This document shows, in pieces, positions 14,733 to 24,096 of a DNA stretch of 64,000 bases. Both the position numbers and the translations under genes were made by a program. The notes under the pieces were generated by a model. The model was not told the origin of the DNA. It worked only from the letters and a program-made list of their open reading frames with translations, and searched no databases. The first letter of the stretch is position 1. Each line of letters starts with the position of its first letter. Source of the DNA: Alteraurantiacibacter sp. (GTDB lineage Bacteria; Pseudomonadota; Alphaproteobacteria; Sphingomonadales; Sphingomonadaceae); assembly GCA_039927835.1 (NCBI GenBank), contig JBDSUF010000035.1:83453-147452 (forward strand), in the 5' to 3' direction.

Positions 14733-15604
14733 AGTACCATGTGCGGCACGTCACGCAGGTCAAATACGAGGGCACGGTCAATCTGGCGCGCTTCAACCTG
14801 CGGCTGAAGCCGTCGCGCTGGCCGGGGCAGGTGCTGGGCGATTACCGGCTGGCGGTGACACCGCAGCCGCGGGTGATCGTTGAGGAGAGCGGGCCGTTCC
14901 TCGTCAATGTGGAGCGGTTGACGCTCGATCAGCCGACCGCCAGCCTGACCGTGACGAGCGAGTTCACGGTGACGGTGGAAGCGGCGGCGCTGCCGCTCGC
15001 CTATGTCGCGCCTGATCTGGCCGAGGTGAGGCAACAGGCGCTGGCCGATCGCGGGCTGGGTCCGGTCGATCCGGCGAGCTACCTGTTCGCATCGCCGATG
15101 GCGGGAATGGTCCCGGCGATTGACGATTGGGCGCGCGCGCGCCTGCCTGCCGGTGGCACGGTAATCGATGCGGCGGCGGCGCTGATGCACGCGATCCACG
15201 CGGAATTCGCCTATGATGGCAAGGCCACCAAGGCCGATACGCCGCCCGCGCAGGCTTTCGCCGCGCGGCGCGGGGTGTGCCAGGACTTCGCCCACATCAT
15301 GATCATCGCGCTGCGCCAGATCGGTGTGCCCGCGGCCTATGTCAGCGGTTACCTGCGGACCAATCCGCCTCCCGGCAAGGCGCGGCTGGTGGGCGCCGAT
15401 GCGACGCACGCTTGGGTCAACGTGTGGTGCGGGCGGGCGATCGGCTGGGTCGGGTTCGACCCGACCAATGCCATGATGGCGGGGACCGATCACATCTTCA
15501 CCGCCATGGGGCGCGATTTCGCCGATGTCTCGCCGCTCGACGGGGTGTTTATCGGGCCGGCGGGCCAGCGGATGACAGTGTCGGTGCAAGTGACGCCGCT
15601 TTAG
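14729..15604 (+). CDS. Transglutaminase family protein
   Basis: YHVRHVTQVKY N-domain; triad GVCQDFAH / THAWV / FDPTN. ATGA coupling to the ATP-grasp gene. Confidence 0.9.
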   Translation: MKYHVRHVTQVKYEGTVNLARFNLRLKPSRWPGQVLGDYRLAVTPQPRVIVEESGPFLVNVERLTLDQPTASLTVTSEFTVTVEAAALPLAYVAPDLAEVRQQALADRGLGPVDPASYLFASPMAGMVPAIDDWARARLPAGGTVIDAAAALMHAIHAEFAYDGKATKADTPPAQAFAARRGVCQDFAHIMIIALRQIGVPAAYVSGYLRTNPPPGKARLVGADATHAWVNVWCGRAIGWVGFDPTNAMMAGTDHIFTAMGRDFADVSPLDGVFIGPAGQRMTVSVQVTPL

Positions 15605-17286
15605 AGGGCTGTCAGATCCGTCAGTCGTCCGCAGGCCGGGATCGTCGTGCCCTTGACAAGGTAGGCCTCCAGCGCGTCGAGATCGACCCCCGCCTCGCCC
15701 ACCGTGGGCCGCTGCACCAGGCTGGCGAACCCGTCACCACCGTTGGCGAGGAAGTTGTTGAACACGATCGTGTACCGCTCCGCCGGGTCGATCGGCGCAC
15801 CGTCCAGCACGATATCGACGATGCGCTGGCCGCGCGGCCGGTTGCGGTCATAGCTGTAGGCCAGCGTGGATGACGGAGCGAGCAGCGTCGAGCACGGCGT
15901 CGCCGGACCCTCGTTGCAGAACTGCTCCTCCAGCGCCAGCCGCAGCTCGGCGCCGTTCAGTTCGAGCACCTGCAACGTGTTGCCGAACGGCTGCATGGCG
16001 AAAATCTCGCCGTAGGTCATAGCCCCGTCGGCGGCGGCATCGAGGTTGGTGCGCACGCCGCTGGTGTTGATGAAGGCTATGTCCACCTCGTCCCCAAGCG
16101 CGGTGCGCGCTGCGGCGAGCTGCGCATCGGCCACCAGATTGGCGGCGGGTGTTTCCACACAGTCACCCTCGCTGCCCGTCGCCGGAGACAGCGTGCCGAC
16201 CGCGCGAGCGGCCACGGGACCGGCCGCGGCAACGTAGCGCTCGACCAGCGCGGCGACGTCGGCGCGGGTGCCCAGCGTGCCGTTGACGGGCACGTTGATG
16301 GCGGCGATGTCGGTCACGCGGCGGGTGGTCTGGTCCCAGGTCAGGCGGATGTCGGTGACGAAGCTGCCGAACCGCCCGGCGCTCGACAAAAGGCGCGGGC
16401 TGCCGTCGGCGAGGTCCATGCGGCAGATGTACGACATGTGCGTATGACCCGAGACGACCAGGCTGATCGCTGGATCGAGCCGCTCGATGATCGGCAGGAT
16501 CGGGCCGTAAAGTCCCGGGCAGCCCGACAGGTTCTGCGACGGATCGACCCGGCCGCCTTCGTGGATCAGCAGGACCACGGTATCGGCCCCCTGCGCCGTC
16601 ACTTCGCGCGCTAGCCGATTGGCGGCATCGGCCTCGTCGGTGAAGCGATAGCCGCGCGTCATGGCGGGCGAAACGAGCGTCGCCGTGCCCGTCAGAGTGA
16701 GCCCGATGAAGCCGACCTTGAGCGGGCCGACCTGGCGCAGGCTGGCACCGGGAAACAGCGATGCTCCCCCGGCGTCGATCACGTTGCCGGCGAGGTAGGC
16801 AAAGCCGGCTCCGGTAAACGGTTCGAGCGCGCAAGGCTGGCGCAGCGTGTTCTGTTCGCAGCCGCCGTCCTGCAACCGGCGCAGTTCGGCGGTGCCACGG
16901 TCGAACTCGTGATTGCCCACCGAAGCGACCTGCAGCCCGGCTAGGTCGAGCGCGGCGATCGAAGGCTCGTCGAGGAAGTTGGCCGAGGCGAACGGCGAGG
17001 CTCCGATCAGGTCGCCCGCCGCCACCGTAACGGTGGCGTCCTGCCCCCGCCGCAAGGCGTCGAGCGTGGCCGCGAGCCGCGCCGCGCCGCCCAGTGCCTC
17101 GCGGACCACCTCGTCACCCCGGCGATAGCTGGTGGTTGAGCCCGGCGTTTCGAGGTTTCCGTGGAAATCGTTGAGCGCTAGCACCTGGACTTCGACCGGA
17201 CCCGAGGCGGTGGGCGCGGGAACGGTGGCGCAGCCGGCCAGCAAACTGGCGAGCATGGTGGCTATAACGGGGCGCGGGGCAGGCAT
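15601..17286 (-). CDS. Lipoprotein bifunctional metallophosphatase/5'-nucleotidase
   Basis: Lipobox LLAGC; NDFHG, GDLIG, GNHEFD, IHEG and GHTH motifs; 5'-nucleotidase C-domain (NTSGVR, QPFGN). Confidence 0.9.
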   Translation of the reverse strand: MPAPRPVIATMLASLLAGCATVPAPTASGPVEVQVLALNDFHGNLETPGSTTSYRRGDEVVREALGGAARLAATLDALRRGQDATVTVAAGDLIGASPFASANFLDEPSIAALDLAGLQVASVGNHEFDRGTAELRRLQDGGCEQNTLRQPCALEPFTGAGFAYLAGNVIDAGGASLFPGASLRQVGPLKVGFIGLTLTGTATLVSPAMTRGYRFTDEADAANRLAREVTAQGADTVVLLIHEGGRVDPSQNLSGCPGLYGPILPIIERLDPAISLVVSGHTHMSYICRMDLADGSPRLLSSAGRFGSFVTDIRLTWDQTTRRVTDIAAINVPVNGTLGTRADVAALVERYVAAAGPVAARAVGTLSPATGSEGDCVETPAANLVADAQLAAARTALGDEVDIAFINTSGVRTNLDAAADGAMTYGEIFAMQPFGNTLQVLELNGAELRLALEEQFCNEGPATPCSTLLAPSSTLAYSYDRNRPRGQRIVDIVLDGAPIDPAERYTIVFNNFLANGGDGFASLVQRPTVGEAGVDLDALEAYLVKGTTIPACGRLTDLTAL

Positions 17287-17382: not shown

Positions 17383-20300
17383 TCAGAACTCGTAACGGGC
17401 GCCGATCTGGATCCGCCACGCGGATGCGGACGTGTTGATCCGTTCCTGATCGTCGGGGTTGAAATCGGTGATGACATAGCGGCCTTGAGCATCGAAGTTG
17501 CCATCGACCAGGTCAACAATCTGACCGTCGCCAAAAACCCCGCGTGAGCGCTGCGTATTCCAGCTGCTGTCCAGGATGTTGAGCACATTGTCGACGTCGG
17601 CGAACAGCTCGATCCTGTCCTCCAGACCGAAGAAATGGCCCGGTCCCGGAACTTCCTGGCTGATCCGCAAGTCGAGATCGTAGACCCAGTCCTCGGTACA
17701 GGTGTTGCGGGCAACGGTGCGCCCTTCGTAACCGTCCGCACAACCCAGATCATCGAGGTAGGCGAGCAGGCTGCTGACGGCTGCCGCGTTGCTGTTTGGC
17801 GACAGGTTCGGATCGGTCGGCCCGGTGGGGATGTACAGCCGCGCGTTGTCACTGCCCGACGCGGTGTCCATGAAGATCGCCGTGCTGCTGCCGCCGTCGA
17901 ACGTCAGTGTGTACGGGCGTCCCGACTGGGCGCTGAAGAACAGGCCCAGCTGGGTGGCAAAATCTTCGTAAAAATCTTCGCGGAAGTTGATCGCCGCCGT
18001 GAAGCGATGACGAGTTTCGTAGTTCGAAGTGCCGACGTCGGGGTTGTTGCGATCGAACTCGCCCGATTCGTCAAAGCTGGATGTCGCGGTCGAGCTGTTG
18101 GCATTGCGGAAGTTGTTAGAATCGGTGAATGCGTAGCCGAAACTGACCGATGTGCCGCCCGTCTCGGTGAACAAACCGCTAGCGAAGCTCTTCGACAGGA
18201 TCAGCGAAACGATGTGGCTGTCGTAGCTCGGCCCGTTGGTGAGCTGGATTTCGTCATCGCGGCTGGTGCCGAAGCAGGCGGCGGTGACGTTGGTGTAACG
18301 CGGCGGGGTGCCGCCCGTGTCAACCAGCGTCGCGTCGCAACCCGCGCGGGTCGGATCAATCGCGCGGTAGATCGGACGGCCATCGACGGTGTAACCGCCC
18401 AGGCCGAGCCGTGGATCGACCACCTGTGAGAGGTCGACGAAGTTCAGCGGGTCGACGAAGTGGCTGTAGACATAGTCGAGGTTGAACCGCCAGCTATCGA
18501 AGAAGCCGCCGCCCACATCGAACGTCGTGTCGATGCCGAGGTTGGCGCGCCACACGGTCGGAACCTTGAAGTTCGGGTCGGTTGACTGGGTGTCGGCCAG
18601 TCCGGCTCCTGACTGAGTCCGCGCCGCTGCGATGACGCAGGCAGGCATGCCGGTGAAGGCGCTGCCCGTGACGACATCGAACTGGCCCTGAGCGTTGCGC
18701 AAGCCGTTGCACAGGCTGGCTGTGCTGGTGCCGACACCGGTTGAATAGCCGTTGTTGGAGAACGCATTCGAGAAATAGACAACCGGATCGCCACCCGAGA
18801 ACACGCCCAGGCCGCCCTTGAACACGGTGTTGCGCAGGAAGGCGCCGTCTTCAACCTCATAGGTCAGACCCAGCCGGGGCATGAAAATCGGGTCGAGATC
18901 ACTGAACGATACGGCATTCGAAAAGCCGTAGCGGGCGATGAAGTTGGGATTCTCACGCGGAGCGCTACCCCGGTACCACTGGGCCCGCAGGCCGGCGATC
19001 ACGCTGAGCCGGTCGGTCGCCTGCCATTCGTCCTGCGCGTACAGCGACCAGATGCGTCGCTCAAAGCGTGCCGCAGCGTCGTTGATGTCGCCACTGTCTG
19101 TAGCCGCAATCACCGCGCCGCCGTTGGCACCGCTGGCGAGATCGTCGGCCGTTCCGAACGGGTTCGGCGTGCCGGTCGACGACGCTACCAAGCCTTGCGA
19201 AAAATCACTGAGGTTACGGAAGAACAGTGTGCCGGTCGCGTTCTGGGCGAACAGGTTGTAGACTTCGAGGTCGTTCAACTCGGCTCCGATCTTGACCCGG
19301 TGGTCGCCGTTGTTCCAGTTCGCTTGAAACTTGTATTGGCCCAATTGGGTGTCGAGCTGGTTCGCCGAGCGCGACAGCCCCGGACCTGTCGAAAGCAGGC
19401 CGTTGACGTCGTCGGCATTGCCGGCAACGCCGTCGGCACCGGGGCCGCGCACGCCTACGACCAAGCGAACGGTTGGGCTATCCGACTGCGCTTCGCCGAA
19501 GCCGACCGGATCCTGCCGGTCACCCACTTCCGACCGGCTGACGCGGACTTCGGTTGAGAAATCCTCGGTCCATTCGGAAAACAGGCGACCAGAGTAGTAA
19601 TTGGAGAGAGTACCTTCAAGGCCGAAGCTGTTATAGCCTGTCAGCTCGTTGCTGCCGGTATCCGAGTAGACATTCTCTTCTTCCAAGCGCTGGTATGTCA
19701 ATTCAAGGCGATGGTTGTCGGTGATGTAGGCGTCGATGCGGCCAAAATAGCGGATGCTCGATTCCGGAAGCGAGGCCGGAAAGCCGCCGATATCCTGTCC
19801 GTAGACGTCGTTGGCGACCTGAGCGAACTGGTCGAACTGGGTTTGGCTGACGAAACGTGCTTCGCTTGGGAAGCCAGATCCCGCAGGCCCGAAGTCGTTG
19901 CTGTCGCCGAGGTCGGTTTGCTCATAGCCGAGGAAGAAAAACAGACGATCCTCTACGATCGGTCCGGAGAGCGTGGCGCCCCAGCGCTTCTCCTGGAACG
20001 GGGCCGGGGTGAAATCCTGCCCATCGACGGTGGAGCCCCGCAGGCTCTGATCGCGATATGTGAAGAAAGCGGAACCGTGGAAATCGTTGGCCCCGGATTT
20101 GGTCACGACGTTGACGAGACAGCCGGTGAAGTCGGAATACTCGACATCGAACGGCGCGAACTCGACCGACGTCTCGCGAATGACATCGAACGGCAGCGGC
20201 AGCGCGTTGCGGGCGGCGAACGGGGTGCCGTTGAGGCCGAAGCTGTCCGCCTGGGTGATGCCGTCAACGGTGAAGGTGTTGGTGCGGTCGTTGCCGCCGA

Positions 20301-20835
20301 GGCAGGAGATGCGATCGACATCACCCTCGCGATCAAGGCTTACGCGCGGGTCGATGCGGATGATGTCGCGAACGTCGCGGTTAATCGACGGGAATGCTTC
20401 CATGGTCTCCGTAGAAAACGCCAGGCCGGGGCCGACTGCGACCTGGGTGGCGCGCACGCGCGCACCGGTGACTACGATCACGCCGCCGCCGCTCGAAAGG
20501 GTGAAGGTCAGGCTGGTGTTACCCTGCAGCGAAGTGATGATGTCGTTGATCGTCTGGCCTTCAAAGCCGGGCGCGGTGACTTCGACGGTGTAGGGGCCGC
20601 CGGTGACCAGGCTGTTGGCGCTGAAGCCGCCGCCATCGCCGGTGGTGAAGGTGCGGGTCGCGCCGGTGCGGGTGTCGGTCACGACCACGCTGGCGCCGCT
20701 GACTGGTGCGCCTGTTTCGTCGCTGACGGTGCCCTCGATGCCCGAGGTGATTTGCTGCGCTGCAACCTGCGGGGCAATGGCCGTGGCCGCAGCAATGCTG
20801 GCAAGGCTCGCGGCCAGGTAAAACTTGATCTTCAT
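17383..20835 (-). CDS. Oar-type TonB-dependent receptor with carboxypeptidase-regulatory-like N-domain
   Basis: Signal peptide MKIKFYLAAS..., QQITSGIEGTV N-domain, IVVTG, NVVTKSGANDFHGSAF, C-terminal RYEF. Start re-assigned to 20835. Confidence 0.92.
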   Translation of the reverse strand: MKIKFYLAASLASIAAATAIAPQVAAQQITSGIEGTVSDETGAPVSGASVVVTDTRTGATRTFTTGDGGGFSANSLVTGGPYTVEVTAPGFEGQTINDIITSLQGNTSLTFTLSSGGGVIVVTGARVRATQVAVGPGLAFSTETMEAFPSINRDVRDIIRIDPRVSLDREGDVDRISCLGGNDRTNTFTVDGITQADSFGLNGTPFAARNALPLPFDVIRETSVEFAPFDVEYSDFTGCLVNVVTKSGANDFHGSAFFTYRDQSLRGSTVDGQDFTPAPFQEKRWGATLSGPIVEDRLFFFLGYEQTDLGDSNDFGPAGSGFPSEARFVSQTQFDQFAQVANDVYGQDIGGFPASLPESSIRYFGRIDAYITDNHRLELTYQRLEEENVYSDTGSNELTGYNSFGLEGTLSNYYSGRLFSEWTEDFSTEVRVSRSEVGDRQDPVGFGEAQSDSPTVRLVVGVRGPGADGVAGNADDVNGLLSTGPGLSRSANQLDTQLGQYKFQANWNNGDHRVKIGAELNDLEVYNLFAQNATGTLFFRNLSDFSQGLVASSTGTPNPFGTADDLASGANGGAVIAATDSGDINDAAARFERRIWSLYAQDEWQATDRLSVIAGLRAQWYRGSAPRENPNFIARYGFSNAVSFSDLDPIFMPRLGLTYEVEDGAFLRNTVFKGGLGVFSGGDPVVYFSNAFSNNGYSTGVGTSTASLCNGLRNAQGQFDVVTGSAFTGMPACVIAAARTQSGAGLADTQSTDPNFKVPTVWRANLGIDTTFDVGGGFFDSWRFNLDYVYSHFVDPLNFVDLSQVVDPRLGLGGYTVDGRPIYRAIDPTRAGCDATLVDTGGTPPRYTNVTAACFGTSRDDEIQLTNGPSYDSHIVSLILSKSFASGLFTETGGTSVSFGYAFTDSNNFRNANSSTATSSFDESGEFDRNNPDVGTSNYETRHRFTAAINFREDFYEDFATQLGLFFSAQSGRPYTLTFDGGSSTAIFMDTASGSDNARLYIPTGPTDPNLSPNSNAAAVSSLLAYLDDLGCADGYEGRTVARNTCTEDWVYDLDLRISQEVPGPGHFFGLEDRIELFADVDNVLNILDSSWNTQRSRGVFGDGQIVDLVDGNFDAQGRYVITDFNPDDQERINTSASAWRIQIGARYEF

Positions 20836-20900
20836 GTCGAGTGGGCTCCCCGTCTGGAACTTTTTTCCTGAATGACTGGCATCGCCGCTATGGGTGGCTT

Positions 20901-20918
20901 GTGACAAACGCAAGACAG
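20901..20918 (-). promoter_or_regulatory. Pho-box-like direct repeat CTGTCTT-GCGT-TTGTCAC
   Basis: Two half-sites at 11-bp period, 66 nt upstream of the receptor ATG; an extra CTGTCAC half-site at 20944-20950. Confidence 0.45.
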
Positions 20919-21057
20919 CGACTTGGCGGGATATTCGCCGGTTGTGACAGAATATTTCCGAATTGTTACAAGGGTAATTAATTCGCTGGAAATTCAATGA
21001 TCTTCGTGTGTTGCCGCACTGCAACAGGGTGCAAAATAGTTACGTCGTCCACTATTT

Positions 21058-21993
21058 TCACGTCAGCTTGATCTCGCGCAGGCGTTGCTGGAGGTATTCC
21101 TCGGCCGTGATCGGGGGCAGCGGCGGGTGCTGCGAATCGACGAATTTGGCCATTGGTTCGATCAGGAAATCGGGCCGGAAGTGGAGGAAGAACGGCATCG
21201 AGTAGCGCGGCCGTTGCGCTGCCTCGCCGACCGGGTTCATCACCCGGTGCGAGGTGGAGCGCAGGTGGCCGTTGGTCAGTCGTTGCAGCATGTCGCCGAT
21301 GTTGACCACCAAGGCGCCTTCGGGCGGGGCGACCCAGATCCATTCGTCCTCGGCGGTCTTGAGTTGCAGGCCCGATTCCTCGGCCCCGAGCAGCAGCGTG
21401 ATGGTGTTGATGTCCTCGTGCGCGGCGGCCCGGATAGCGCCTTCGGGCGCGGCCGAGCCATTGGCGGCGGCGAGCGGCGGATAATGCAGCAGGCGCATCA
21501 CCGAATTGCCCTTGTCAACCGATGCAGCGAAGAAGTCGGGAGCCTCGCCCAGGCTCAGCGCGATGGCTTCGAGAATGCGCTGGCCGCTGGCTTCGAAGGC
21601 GGCGTAGATCTCCTCCATCGTCTCGCGGAAGCCCGGAACTTCGCTCGGCCACACGTTGGGCGCCATGAACTGTTCGAGCGGATCGCCCGGCGGCAGCGTG
21701 CGGCCCACGTGCCAGAATTCCTTGAGGTCGATCACCGTCGCGTCCTTGGCCTGCTCGGTGCCGAACGGGGTGTAGCCGCGCGCGCCGCCTTTGCCCGCCA
21801 GGCGGTACTGGCGCTTCACCTCCTCCGGCAGGGCGAAGAAGGCGCGGCACATGGCCCAGGCGCGGGCGATCAGGTCAGCTGGAATGCCGTGATCGCGCAC
21901 CACGCCGAAGCCGGTCTCGGCAAACGAGCGGCCCAGTTCGTCGGCGATCTCCTCCAGCGGGCGGTCGAGCGAGACGGAAGCGATGGTGGGCAT
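21058..21993 (-). CDS. 2OG-Fe(II) dioxygenase (IPNS/DIOX_N family)
   Basis: GFGVVRDHGI, RGYTPFG, RLLHYPP, HED (HxD), HRV and RYS (RxS) motifs. Confidence 0.9.
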   Translation of the reverse strand: MPTIASVSLDRPLEEIADELGRSFAETGFGVVRDHGIPADLIARAWAMCRAFFALPEEVKRQYRLAGKGGARGYTPFGTEQAKDATVIDLKEFWHVGRTLPPGDPLEQFMAPNVWPSEVPGFRETMEEIYAAFEASGQRILEAIALSLGEAPDFFAASVDKGNSVMRLLHYPPLAAANGSAAPEGAIRAAAHEDINTITLLLGAEESGLQLKTAEDEWIWVAPPEGALVVNIGDMLQRLTNGHLRSTSHRVMNPVGEAAQRPRYSMPFFLHFRPDFLIEPMAKFVDSQHPPLPPITAEEYLQQRLREIKLT

Positions 21994-22012
21994 TGTCGTT
22001 GAAGTCCTTCGA

Positions 22013-23338
22013 TCACACGGGCAGGAGCAGGCCGGCCAGCGCGGCGCTCATCAGGTTGGCAAGGGTACCTGCGGCGAGCGCCTTGAGGCCCAGGCGGGCG
22101 ATCACCGGGCGCTGGTTGGGGGCGAGGCCGCCGGTCACCGCCATCTGGATGGCGATCGAGCTCAAGTTGGCAAATCCGCACAGCGCGAAGACCACGATCG
22201 AGCGGCTCCGTTCGCTCAGCGCATCGGCCGGCAGGCCCTGCAGGTCGATAAAGGCGACGAATTCGTTGAGGACCATCTTGGTGCCGAACAGCCCGCCGGC
22301 CACTTGCGCCTCCTGCCAAGGAATGCCCAGCAGCAGCATGACGGGGGCGAGCACGTGGCCGAGCAGGCCCTGGAAGGTGAGGTCCGGAAAGCCGACCAGC
22401 CCGCCCAGCCAGCCGAGCAGGCCGTTCGCCAGAGCCACCAGCGCCACGAAGGCCAGCACCATCGCGCCCACCGACACCGCCAGCTTGAGCCCGGTCTGCG
22501 CGCCTTGTGCGGCCGCCTCGATGATGTTGGCCGCGCCTTCGTCGTGATCGTCGAGCGTTTCGGCCACGGTGACCTCGTGCGGTTTCGAGCCGCCTTCGGT
22601 AATCGCCGCCGGCCCTTCGGCGCTGATCCGCCCATGCGGCAATTCCACTTCGGCTGAGTGCGTATGCAGCGGCGGGCCATCGTCTGGCATCATGATCTTG
22701 GCCATCAGAATGCCGCCAGGGGCGGACATGAAGGCGGCCGCGAGCAGGGCAGGGAGGTAGGCGTTGCCCAGCAGCCCGGCGTAGGCGGCCAGGATCGTGC
22801 CCGCGACCCCCGCCATGCCCACGGTCATCAGCGTGAAGATGCCCGAGGGGGTCATGGCCGCAAGATAGGGCCGCACGACCAAGGGACTTTCCGACTGGCC
22901 GACGAAGATGTTGGCCGCCGCGCCGAGCGCCTCCACCCGGTCGATCCCGGTAATCCACCCGATCGCGCCGCCAAGCCAGCGCACGATGCGTTGCATGATG
23001 CCGAGGTGGTAGAGGATCGAGACCAGCGCAGCGAAGAAGATGATCACCGGCAGCGCGCCCACGGCGAAGGTCCCGGCCAAGGGGTTGTTTTCGGGCGAGC
23101 CGAGCAGGAAGGCGGTGCCCTCGCCGGCATAGGAGAGCAGCGCCGCCACCCCGTTGGCCAGCGTCTGGATCACCGCCGCGCCGCCGGTGGTGCGGAGGAT
23201 CAGCAGCGCCAGCCCCGCCTGCAGCGCAAAGGCCGCGCCGACCACGCGCAGGCGGACGCGCTTGCGGCCACTCGACAGGAGCACGGCGAAAGCCAGGATC
23301 GCGACGATCCCGATCAGGCTGATCACTTGCGGTTGCAC
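22013..23338 (-). CDS. nupC: NupC/NupG (CNT) nucleoside transporter
   Basis: [47 protein letters not shown] start at 23338 with AGGAG upstream. Confidence 0.92.
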
Positions 23339-23439
23339 ACCCACTCCTGCCCCTTATGGAAAGCAGCTTCATCGCCGGGCCTGCCGTAAAGGTCAACGGC
23401 GGGCTTGCTGGAATTGCCAAGCAACCCTAGCAAGGCGGC

Positions 23440-24096
23440 ATGACTGAAGCACCCGTCACGCCTGCCGCTCCCGTGATCCAGCGTCCGCTGCTGATGCTGG
23501 CGCTGCTCTATGGCGGGATGACCTGCATCGCCGGCGTGCTGGGATCGAAGCAGGTGGCGCTGGGCCCGCTGGCGGTGGAGGCGGGGATCTTCCCGTTCCT
23601 GCTGCTGGTGTCGATCTCCAGCACCGTGGCGCAGCTTTACGGGCGCGCGATGGCGAACAGCGTGGTGCGCTTCGGCTTCATTCCGCTGACCACCGCAATC
23701 GTGTTGACCTGGTTGGTGCTGCAGTTGCCGACCGATGAGGGCATGTACGAGCCCGCCAAGGAGGCTTTCCCGATCATCCTGGCGCAAAGCGGCCGCCTGA
23801 TGGTCGCCGGGATCATCGCTTACGGCGTGTCGATGTGGCTCAACGTGCAGCTGTTTTCGAAGCTGGCGGGCGTGATGGGTCAGGGCGCGCAAGTGCGCGG
23901 GGCCATTGCCTCGATGCTGAGCCAGGTGGTCGATACGCTGATCTTCATCACCATTGCCTTTTATGGCGTGCGCCCGATCGGCGAACTGCTGCTGGGCCAG
24001 GCGCTGTCGAAGGTGGTGCTGTCCCTGGTGTTCGTGCCGCTGGTGATCACTGGGCTGCTGGCGCTTGCCCGGCGGATGGAGCGGAACGCGCAGTAG
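23440..24096 (+). CDS. yhhQ: Queuosine precursor transporter (YhhQ/VUT family)
   Basis: Multi-TM protein with KQV, EAGIFPF and SMLSQVVDTLIFITIAFYG, characteristic of the VUT family. Confidence 0.85.
   Translation: MTEAPVTPAAPVIQRPLLMLALLYGGMTCIAGVLGSKQVALGPLAVEAGIFPFLLLVSISSTVAQLYGRAMANSVVRFGFIPLTTAIVLTWLVLQLPTDEGMYEPAKEAFPIILAQSGRLMVAGIIAYGVSMWLNVQLFSKLAGVMGQGAQVRGAIASMLSQVVDTLIFITIAFYGVRPIGELLLGQALSKVVLSLVFVPLVITGLLALARRMERNAQ

Follow-up and report, generated by a model that had tools for sequence, protein, structure and literature searches.

What might an Fe(II)/2-oxoglutarate (2OG) oxygenase do beside a nucleoside importer? The question is raised by a 64,000-nucleotide stretch of an Alteraurantiacibacter sp. 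genome (contig JBDSUF010000035.1, positions 83,453–147,452), called the window here. The gene concerned lies on the minus strand at positions 21058–21993 of the window, immediately downstream of a nupC gene. It is an intact open reading frame with an ATG start and encodes a protein of 311 aa that belongs to the CC_0200/3OOX subfamily. The protein has a fold like that of thymine-7-hydroxylase (T7H), an intact catalytic triad and 2OG site, and its gene is conserved next to nupC, and co-occurs with it, in two bacterial classes. It is probably a salvage oxygenase directed at nucleosides or bases, working in the cytoplasm on compounds brought in by its partner, a NupC (CNT-family) importer. In the literature searched, no paper assigning a function to the subfamily or noting its coupling to CNT transporters was found, and searches for 2OG oxygenases linked to nupC and for deoxynucleoside hydroxylases in bacteria gave nothing relevant; in that literature a nucleoside-salvage module with an oxygenase step is not described in bacteria.

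We propose that the window encodes a nucleic-acid scavenging module made of an Oar-type TonB-dependent receptor, a periplasmic 5'-nucleotidase, NupC together with a YhhQ-family base transporter, and the oxygenase. In this model, O2 and 2OG would be used to oxidise a C–H bond of an imported nucleoside or free base, and the resulting compound would enter ordinary salvage.

Coupling of the oxygenase to a nucleoside importer

The nupC gene (22013–23344, minus strand) encodes a 443 aa transporter with the Nucleos_tra2_N, Gate and Nucleos_tra2_C domains. Nucleos_tra2_C scored 247 bits, and the score against TIGR00804, 406 bits, was below the 442-bit cut-off of that model. The nupC stop codon and the oxygenase ATG are separated by 19 nt (tcGAAGGActtcaacgaca; 21994–22012, minus strand), in which the Shine-Dalgarno-like word GAAGGA can be read as a ribosome-binding site. 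No terminator-like site was seen in this spacer, and a promoter and terminator scan of the putative nupC–oxygenase operon returned no matches. The initial annotation had described an apparent operon with nupC, back-to-back with yhhQ; the two genes form a putative operon, and nupC indeed diverges across 95 bp from a YhhQ/QPTR (COG1738) gene, paralog "A" (yhhQ-A hereafter; 23440–24096, plus strand, 218 aa). The latter scored 110 bits against Vut_1 and 74.3 bits against TIGR00697 (cut-off 50.95).

The genome of the window is of the Erythrobacteraceae type, and Alteraurantiacibacter supplies its closest named homologs. The conservation of this arrangement was followed in 151 genomes of the GTDB family, 126 of which carry a single-copy ortholog of the oxygenase. 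Among the 30 closest orthologs nupC was immediately upstream in 29, and the thirtieth locus was cut short at that end. In 20 close relatives compared over 10-kb flanks, yhhQ diverging from nupC–oxygenase, with or without the TonB receptor, was found in 16–18 and the receptor itself downstream of the oxygenase in 12; the malQ, glgP and 5'-nucleotidase flanks were not conserved. The divergent arrangement was also present in Erythrobacter, Porphyrobacter, Tsuneonella and Qipengyuania. An extended version existed in Sphingomicrobium, Allosphingosinicella and Sphingomonas arvum, where yhhQ diverges from a co-directional series composed of a LOG-type nucleotide nucleosidase, nupC and the oxygenase. 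A PfkB kinase precedes LOG in some of these Sphingomicrobiaceae-type loci, and genes for cytidine deaminase, an S1/P1 nuclease, a 5'-nucleotidase and AMP nucleosidase lie nearby on mixed strands.

Over the whole family sample, the oxygenase was within 5 kb of nupC in 49 of the 97 genomes carrying both and within 5 kb of yhhQ-A in 42 of 104, and nupC was within 5 kb of yhhQ-A in 70 of 97. The odds ratios for co-occurrence, calculated ignoring phylogeny, were 18 for the oxygenase and nupC, 35 for the oxygenase and yhhQ-A, and 97 for nupC and yhhQ-A. A transporter without the oxygenase was rare (4 of 101 genomes for nupC, 3 of 107 for yhhQ-A).

A different arrangement was observed in the Gammaproteobacteria. 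In a metagenome-assembled genome of the Steroidobacteraceae and in a related genome, the order is oxygenase, nupC, thymidine kinase gene (tdk) and TonB receptor, with unrelated genes upstream; in one locus (L119) the oxygenase and nupC genes overlap by 4 nt. An ortholog of the oxygenase was present in 10 of the 101 sampled genomes of that order, and a CNT gene follows it in eight of the ten primary orthologs. Conversely, transporters in the subclade of the linked CNT (identity of 50% or more) occurred in 10 genomes, nine of which have the oxygenase. The adjacency of tdk extends to streamlined genomes of 1.4–1.5 Mb with 36–38% GC, so that the oxygenase–nupC–tdk order spans 36% to 68% GC; in one genome, oxygenase and tdk genes abut with no nupC between them. 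Two high-GC operons end with an Oar-type TonB receptor 32–33% identical to that of the window. Because the gammaproteobacterial CNT is only about 33% identical to the NupC of the window and the gene order is reversed, this arrangement is a second, independent coupling of the oxygenase to a CNT transporter. Of 47 signature residues, nearly all are the same in the alphaproteobacterial and high-GC gammaproteobacterial oxygenases (two differ), and the low-GC genomes differ at about six. Because of this agreement the first two groups look isofunctional and were treated as such.

The coupling of the oxygenase to a CNT importer is thus well supported, given two gene orders, two classes, translational coupling, and a transporter whose presence depends on that of the oxygenase. 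The link to nucleoside uptake put forward in the initial annotation is strongly supported by the adjacency across many sphingomonad genera and by the different order in the Gammaproteobacteria. The same observations bear on the alternative that the enzyme acts on an unrelated small metabolite and that its place beside nupC is inherited gene order with no functional link. Many orthologs and distant homologs do lie beside genes for c-di-GMP enzymes, OmpA, the Tad pilus, MFS transporters or housekeeping functions, and the substrates of the 2OG oxygenase superfamily are very diverse, as this alternative would have it. However, inheritance alone hardly accounts for two gene orders in two classes with CNTs only 33% identical. 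The translational coupling and the retention of the pair in streamlined genomes also speak for a functional link, as does the dependence of the transporter on the oxygenase in both classes. We therefore consider the absence of any link unlikely.

Several observations weigh against a salvage oxygenase partnered with the importer. Roughly half of the orthologs in the family lie away from nupC, and a nupC ortholog is missing from 29 genomes that have the oxygenase (22–29 for nupC or yhhQ-A). The co-occurrence statistics take no account of phylogeny. In Brevundimonas and other Caulobacteraceae, in Sphingopyxis and in other alphaproteobacterial families, the orthologs have unrelated contexts, and the contexts of homologs with 40–47% identity are heterogeneous, with only occasional transporters or TonB receptors in common. 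No assay or mutant data were found in the literature for any member of the subfamily. Finally, the most specific neighbour signals conflict, with yhhQ-A and the queuosine-pathway gene queF in the Alphaproteobacteria and tdk in the Gammaproteobacteria; as these two signals disagree, they do not settle the concrete substrate.

Active site and comparison with thymine-7-hydroxylase

The protein is clearly a member of the Fe(II)/2OG oxygenase superfamily, in the IPNS/DOXC-like branch characterised by DIOX_N and 2OG-FeII_Oxy. In a Pfam search these two domains scored 89.4 bits (cut-off 27.3) and 72.9 bits (cut-off 23), respectively; they were the only domains found, and no NCBIfam model named the protein. 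The HxD...H and RxS motifs reported as intact in the initial annotation are H192-x-D194...H249 and R263-x-S265, and all five residues are unchanged across 11 orthologs. In the alignment with the Neurospora crassa T7H they coincide with the Fe ligands His214, Asp216 and His271 and the 2OG ligands Arg286 and Ser288. No signal peptide was evident when the N-terminus was inspected by eye, so the enzyme is probably cytoplasmic. At E<=1e-30 the family comprises 696 representative clusters (50% identity).

The AlphaFold2 model of the oxygenase (pLDDT 88.2, pTM 0.88) has a double-stranded beta-helix fold. In the Foldseek ranking of this model, PDB entry 3OOX came first (TM 0.90), followed by the N. 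crassa T7H (TM 0.84), an ancestral ethylene-forming enzyme, a P. aeruginosa orphan and IPNS; TM values to T7H, IPNS and plant DOXC enzymes were 0.78–0.84. The sequence search also gave 3OOX, the CC_0200 protein of Caulobacter crescentus, as the best PDB match (E 3.9e-90, residues 13–310). The match covers the full length with 49% identity in the structure-based alignment and places both proteins in the same subfamily, with the motifs KEFWH, RLLHYPP, HxDIN, GDML, HRV, RYSxPFFLH and QRLREI in common. The two differ in genomic context: the Caulobacteraceae orthologs examined do not adjoin nupC, yhhQ or queF. The 3OOX structure is a structural-genomics entry, the function of which a 2023 review still gave as "undefined", and beyond this listing the literature on 3OOX and CC_0200 held nothing relevant.

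The nearest characterised relative, by both sequence and fold, is the N. crassa T7H (PDB 5C3P–5C3S; E 5.6e-33, about 29% identity), which acts on a nucleobase, thymine, and is part of the fungal thymidine salvage pathway. The Fe triad and the 2OG Arg/Ser pair are shared, as is a C-terminal lid helix with the Y..QRL motif. Two of the six thymine contacts of T7H are retained, Phe292 (F269 in the oxygenase) and Arg190 (R167), and both are common in this branch of oxygenases. The other four, Tyr217, Asn87, Glu122 and Asn294, are replaced by the invariant residues Ile195, Ala71, His95 and His271. Moreover, unlike that of T7H, the oxygenase gene is bacterial and linked to a transporter. That the oxygenase is a T7H ortholog was rejected, as four of the six substrate contacts are not kept.

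This comparison bears on a further alternative, in which the enzyme would remove modifications from other nucleosides or bases released from RNA and DNA and yield the salvageable parent compound. Candidates would be the oxidation of thymidine or 5-methyl(deoxy)cytidine at the 5-methyl group, a T7H reaction at the nucleoside level, or N-demethylation of methylated purine nucleosides. The relation to T7H, with its lid helix, R167 and F269 in common, is in line with such a reaction, and the changes Tyr217 to Ile and Asn87 to Ala would be expected to enlarge the pocket, so as to suit a whole nucleoside and not just the base. The neighbouring genes tdk and cdd both encode pyrimidine enzymes. Against it stand the replacement of four of the six contacts and the position of the gene beside a thymidine kinase gene, where oxidation of thymidine would have no obvious benefit. 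No iso-orotate decarboxylase-like partner was noticed among the annotated neighbourhoods either, where no search was aimed at one and none was made genome-wide. Base demodification of this kind appears improbable.

Deoxynucleosides or queuine as possible substrates

If the oxygenase acts on what NupC imports, two groups of compounds come to the fore. The neighbours tdk, cdd, deoA, LOG and the nuclease point to a general nucleoside salvage, especially of deoxy- or pyrimidine nucleosides. The genome of the window, which is 99.99% complete, was devoid of homologs of DeoA, DeoB, DeoC, DeoD and Udp and of an IU-nucleoside hydrolase (IUNH); it carries tdk, cdd, amn, LOG and PfkB kinase genes. Canonical nucleoside cleavage therefore seems to be missing. 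As far as its gene content tells, the cell would be able to import deoxynucleosides and would have no known route to use them, except for deoxythymidine and deoxyuridine via tdk. A single 2OG-dependent 2'- or 1'-hydroxylase would close this gap for DNA-derived nucleosides in a genome without Deo enzymes. Hydroxylation at 2' would produce ribonucleosides, and hydroxylation at 1' would release the base, as in the fungal thymidine-salvage enzymes. Because one enzyme and one transporter would be enough, this reading fits the minimal pair conserved in both classes. Sugar hydroxylation of 2'-deoxynucleosides may tentatively be put forward on these grounds.

Activities of this type are known in fungi as pyrimidine deoxynucleoside 2'-dioxygenase (EC 1.14.11.3) and 1'-dioxygenase (EC 1.14.11.10); to our knowledge, no sequence has been assigned to either. 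Like the reaction considered here, they depend on 2OG and Fe, act on free deoxynucleosides and belong to the pathway of T7H. The parallel would explain the tdk, nupC and cdd neighbours and the Deo-less genome; these fungal families are defined by activity only, and the link is an analogy of function. A fungal hydroxylase converting thymidine into the thymine ribonucleoside is cited in PMC4787775.

True deoA (thymidine phosphorylase) genes are rare in the family (7 of 151 genomes), and six of the seven lie directly beside nupC. In the six genomes with a deoA–nupC operon, yhhQ-A does not adjoin nupC. An anticorrelation of deoA with the oxygenase had been expected and was rejected, as six of the seven deoA genomes still carry the oxygenase.

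The association of a CNT transporter with enzymes for one special nucleoside has a precedent in the pseudouridine operon of Escherichia coli, psuK-psuG-psuT (yeiC-yeiN-yeiM), whose transporter belongs to the CNT family. Its layout, with a PfkB kinase and a nucleotide-cleaving enzyme, recalls the PfkB–LOG–nupC–oxygenase order of the Sphingomicrobiaceae. It differs in having no oxygenase and in having PsuG rather than LOG.

The other group of compounds is that of the 7-deazaguanines. The initial annotation had speculated that the oxygenase converts queuine or queuosine to preQ1, and a reaction on such a compound, for example this oxidative dealkylation, is possible but doubtful. The enzyme would be an O2-dependent dealkylase regenerating preQ1, an aerobic and non-orthologous counterpart of the radical-SAM enzyme QueL. 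The carbon adjoining the secondary amine would be hydroxylated, and the resulting carbinolamine would break down to preQ1 and a cyclopentenone diol; the base would enter through YhhQ-A and the nucleoside through NupC. If true, the net role would be that of QueL in Clostridioides difficile, where it acts with QueK and QrtT (PMC11130926), namely to supply a preQ1-type TGT with preQ1 made from queuine, and the clustering with transporters of queuosine precursors would be another likeness. QueL, in contrast, is a radical-SAM enzyme sensitive to O2, whereas the oxygenase belongs to a different superfamily, uses 2OG and Fe and needs O2. As it has no radical-SAM domain, the oxygenase is not QueL itself and could be a functional analogue at most.

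This idea found limited, though real, support. The yhhQ-A product passes the COG1738/QPTR model (TIGR00697), and the gene tracks both the oxygenase (with the odds ratio of 35) and nupC. The COG1738 family is reported to contain preQ0-, preQ1- and queuine-specific subgroups (PMC5372724; PMC11130926). In 16 of the 126 genomes with the oxygenase, queF (TIGR03139, about 136 bits) was located 20 bp to 2.8 kb from it. The TGT of the organism carries GGLAVGE, a motif of the preQ1 type (motif from PMC11570991), and should not accept queuine directly; queuine would therefore need conversion to preQ1. A hydrolase of the IUNH/QueK type, the absence of which had been listed as a check on the idea, is indeed missing from the genome. 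In the Sphingomicrobiaceae, the PfkB kinase and the LOG nucleosidase beside nupC could together convert queuosine to queuine. Recycling of queuine from the tRNA of the cell itself would fit the wider distribution of the oxygenase compared with the transporters, and no enzyme of this kind is described in the literature searched on alternatives to queuine lyase.

The yhhQ-A product is a divergent member of its transporter family. A second and more canonical yhhQ paralog (C31:40635–41093; TIGR00697 124.6 bits vs 74.3 for yhhQ-A) is near-universal in the family, including the genomes lacking the oxygenase. This paralog lies outside the window, about 19 kb from queF (C31:21564–21998). Most of the queF–oxygenase pairs are convergent with no nupC or yhhQ nearby, and two genomes have the oxygenase and nupC, with or without divergent yhhQ, next to queF. 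Beside nupC or yhhQ-A, queF was found in three genomes (G087, G060 and G147). In a congener of the window organism, queF adjoins the divergent nupC and yhhQ, with the oxygenase 200 kb away. Other observations do not favour the idea. In all four queF arrangements the module lies on the 3' side of queF. In G087 and G147 (loci L196 and L156), queF is paired divergently with a rhodanese-domain gene on its other side. From the constant 3' position and this pairing, a single ancestral juxtaposition followed by inversions is sufficient, and the oxygenase tree is compatible with a single origin of the position beside queF.

The gammaproteobacterial orthologs with the same signature residues sit with tdk, and neither yhhQ nor queF was found within about 9 kb of their operons. 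Pairing of nupC with deoA, cdd and tdk suggests ordinary pyrimidine nucleosides. The nucleoside route would need a second enzyme, and none is conserved with the oxygenase–nupC pair. Upstream of nupC and yhhQ, no riboswitch or other RNA element reached the gathering score or even E<=1, and this includes the preQ1 riboswitch. The genome has a de novo route to queuosine (tgt, queA, queC, queE, queF and queG were found; queD was not detected in the genome with the E. coli query), so salvage would be dispensable. The queA gene is split across the ends of two contigs (C17, 1–759; C19, 3–254) by an assembly break and is not disrupted. The presence of the pathway was rejected as a discriminator: tgt, whose co-occurrence had also been proposed as a check, accompanied the oxygenase in 13 of 13 other oxygenase-carrying gammaproteobacterial and streamlined alphaproteobacterial genomes, and queC in 10 of the 13. 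The co-occurrence is uninformative.

On balance, sugar hydroxylation and a 7-deazaguanine reaction are close to a tie. The complete scheme, in which the oxygenase, a dedicated QPTR paralog and the CNT transporter together would form an aerobic, indirect salvage route from queuine or queuosine via preQ1, is rather doubtful.

Surroundings of the locus and significance

The 95 bp region between nupC and yhhQ-A (23345–23439) would hold the promoters of both genes. It was compared with 27 orthologous spacers (L051–L087 and L155). The word GTCAAC in the window corresponds to a conserved GTCAAA, which reads TTTGAC, a -35-like element, on the nupC strand. Many Erythrobacteraceae spacers also keep CTTCCCTTTT-N11-13-CCATAG upstream of yhhQ, where the window has GCTTGC...CCCTAG instead. 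As read from the alignment, the conserved words look like ordinary -35 and -10 elements.

The gene for the Oar-type TonB-dependent outer-membrane receptor (17383–20835, minus strand; CarboxypepD_reg and OMP_b-brl_4 domains) has its true start at the ATG at 20835, on the strand of the oxygenase and 222 bp downstream of it. The gap (20836–21057) is AT-richer, and the inverted repeat AAATAGT-N10-ACTATTT directly follows the oxygenase stop codon; the receptor gene probably has its own promoter because of these two features. The next gene of the proposed module (15601–17286, minus strand) encodes a lipoprotein 5'-nucleotidase with an LLAGC lipobox and the Metallophos and 5_nucleotid_C domains.

Oxygenase genes located away from nupC often have an MFS transporter gene as a neighbour, as in eight Sphingomonas and six Novosphingobium loci; in another locus (L189) the MFS gene begins 5 bp after the oxygenase. 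In two alphaproteobacterial genomes of 1.4 Mb and 34–35% GC (L170 and L172), a homolog of 40% identity is flanked by a DUF3108 gene and a TonB-dependent receptor gene. The oxygenase and the receptor are paired there without a CNT gene, and a second large gene comes next.

A crystal structure for the subfamily has been available since 2010, yet no function has been assigned. The family is widespread: most sphingomonads have a member, as do streamlined marine Gammaproteobacteria. Its consistent coupling to CNT importers provides a short and directly testable list of substrates, and neither of the two leading outcomes would have a precedent in bacteria. Sugar hydroxylation of deoxynucleosides, if confirmed, would attach a gene to old orphan fungal activities and would explain the use of DNA-derived nucleosides by aquatic bacteria lacking Deo enzymes. 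With a queuine dealkylase, queuosine salvage would gain an aerobic branch, and the predictions of which environmental bacteria use queuine would change: many free-living Alphaproteobacteria now predicted to be non-salvagers could then salvage it.

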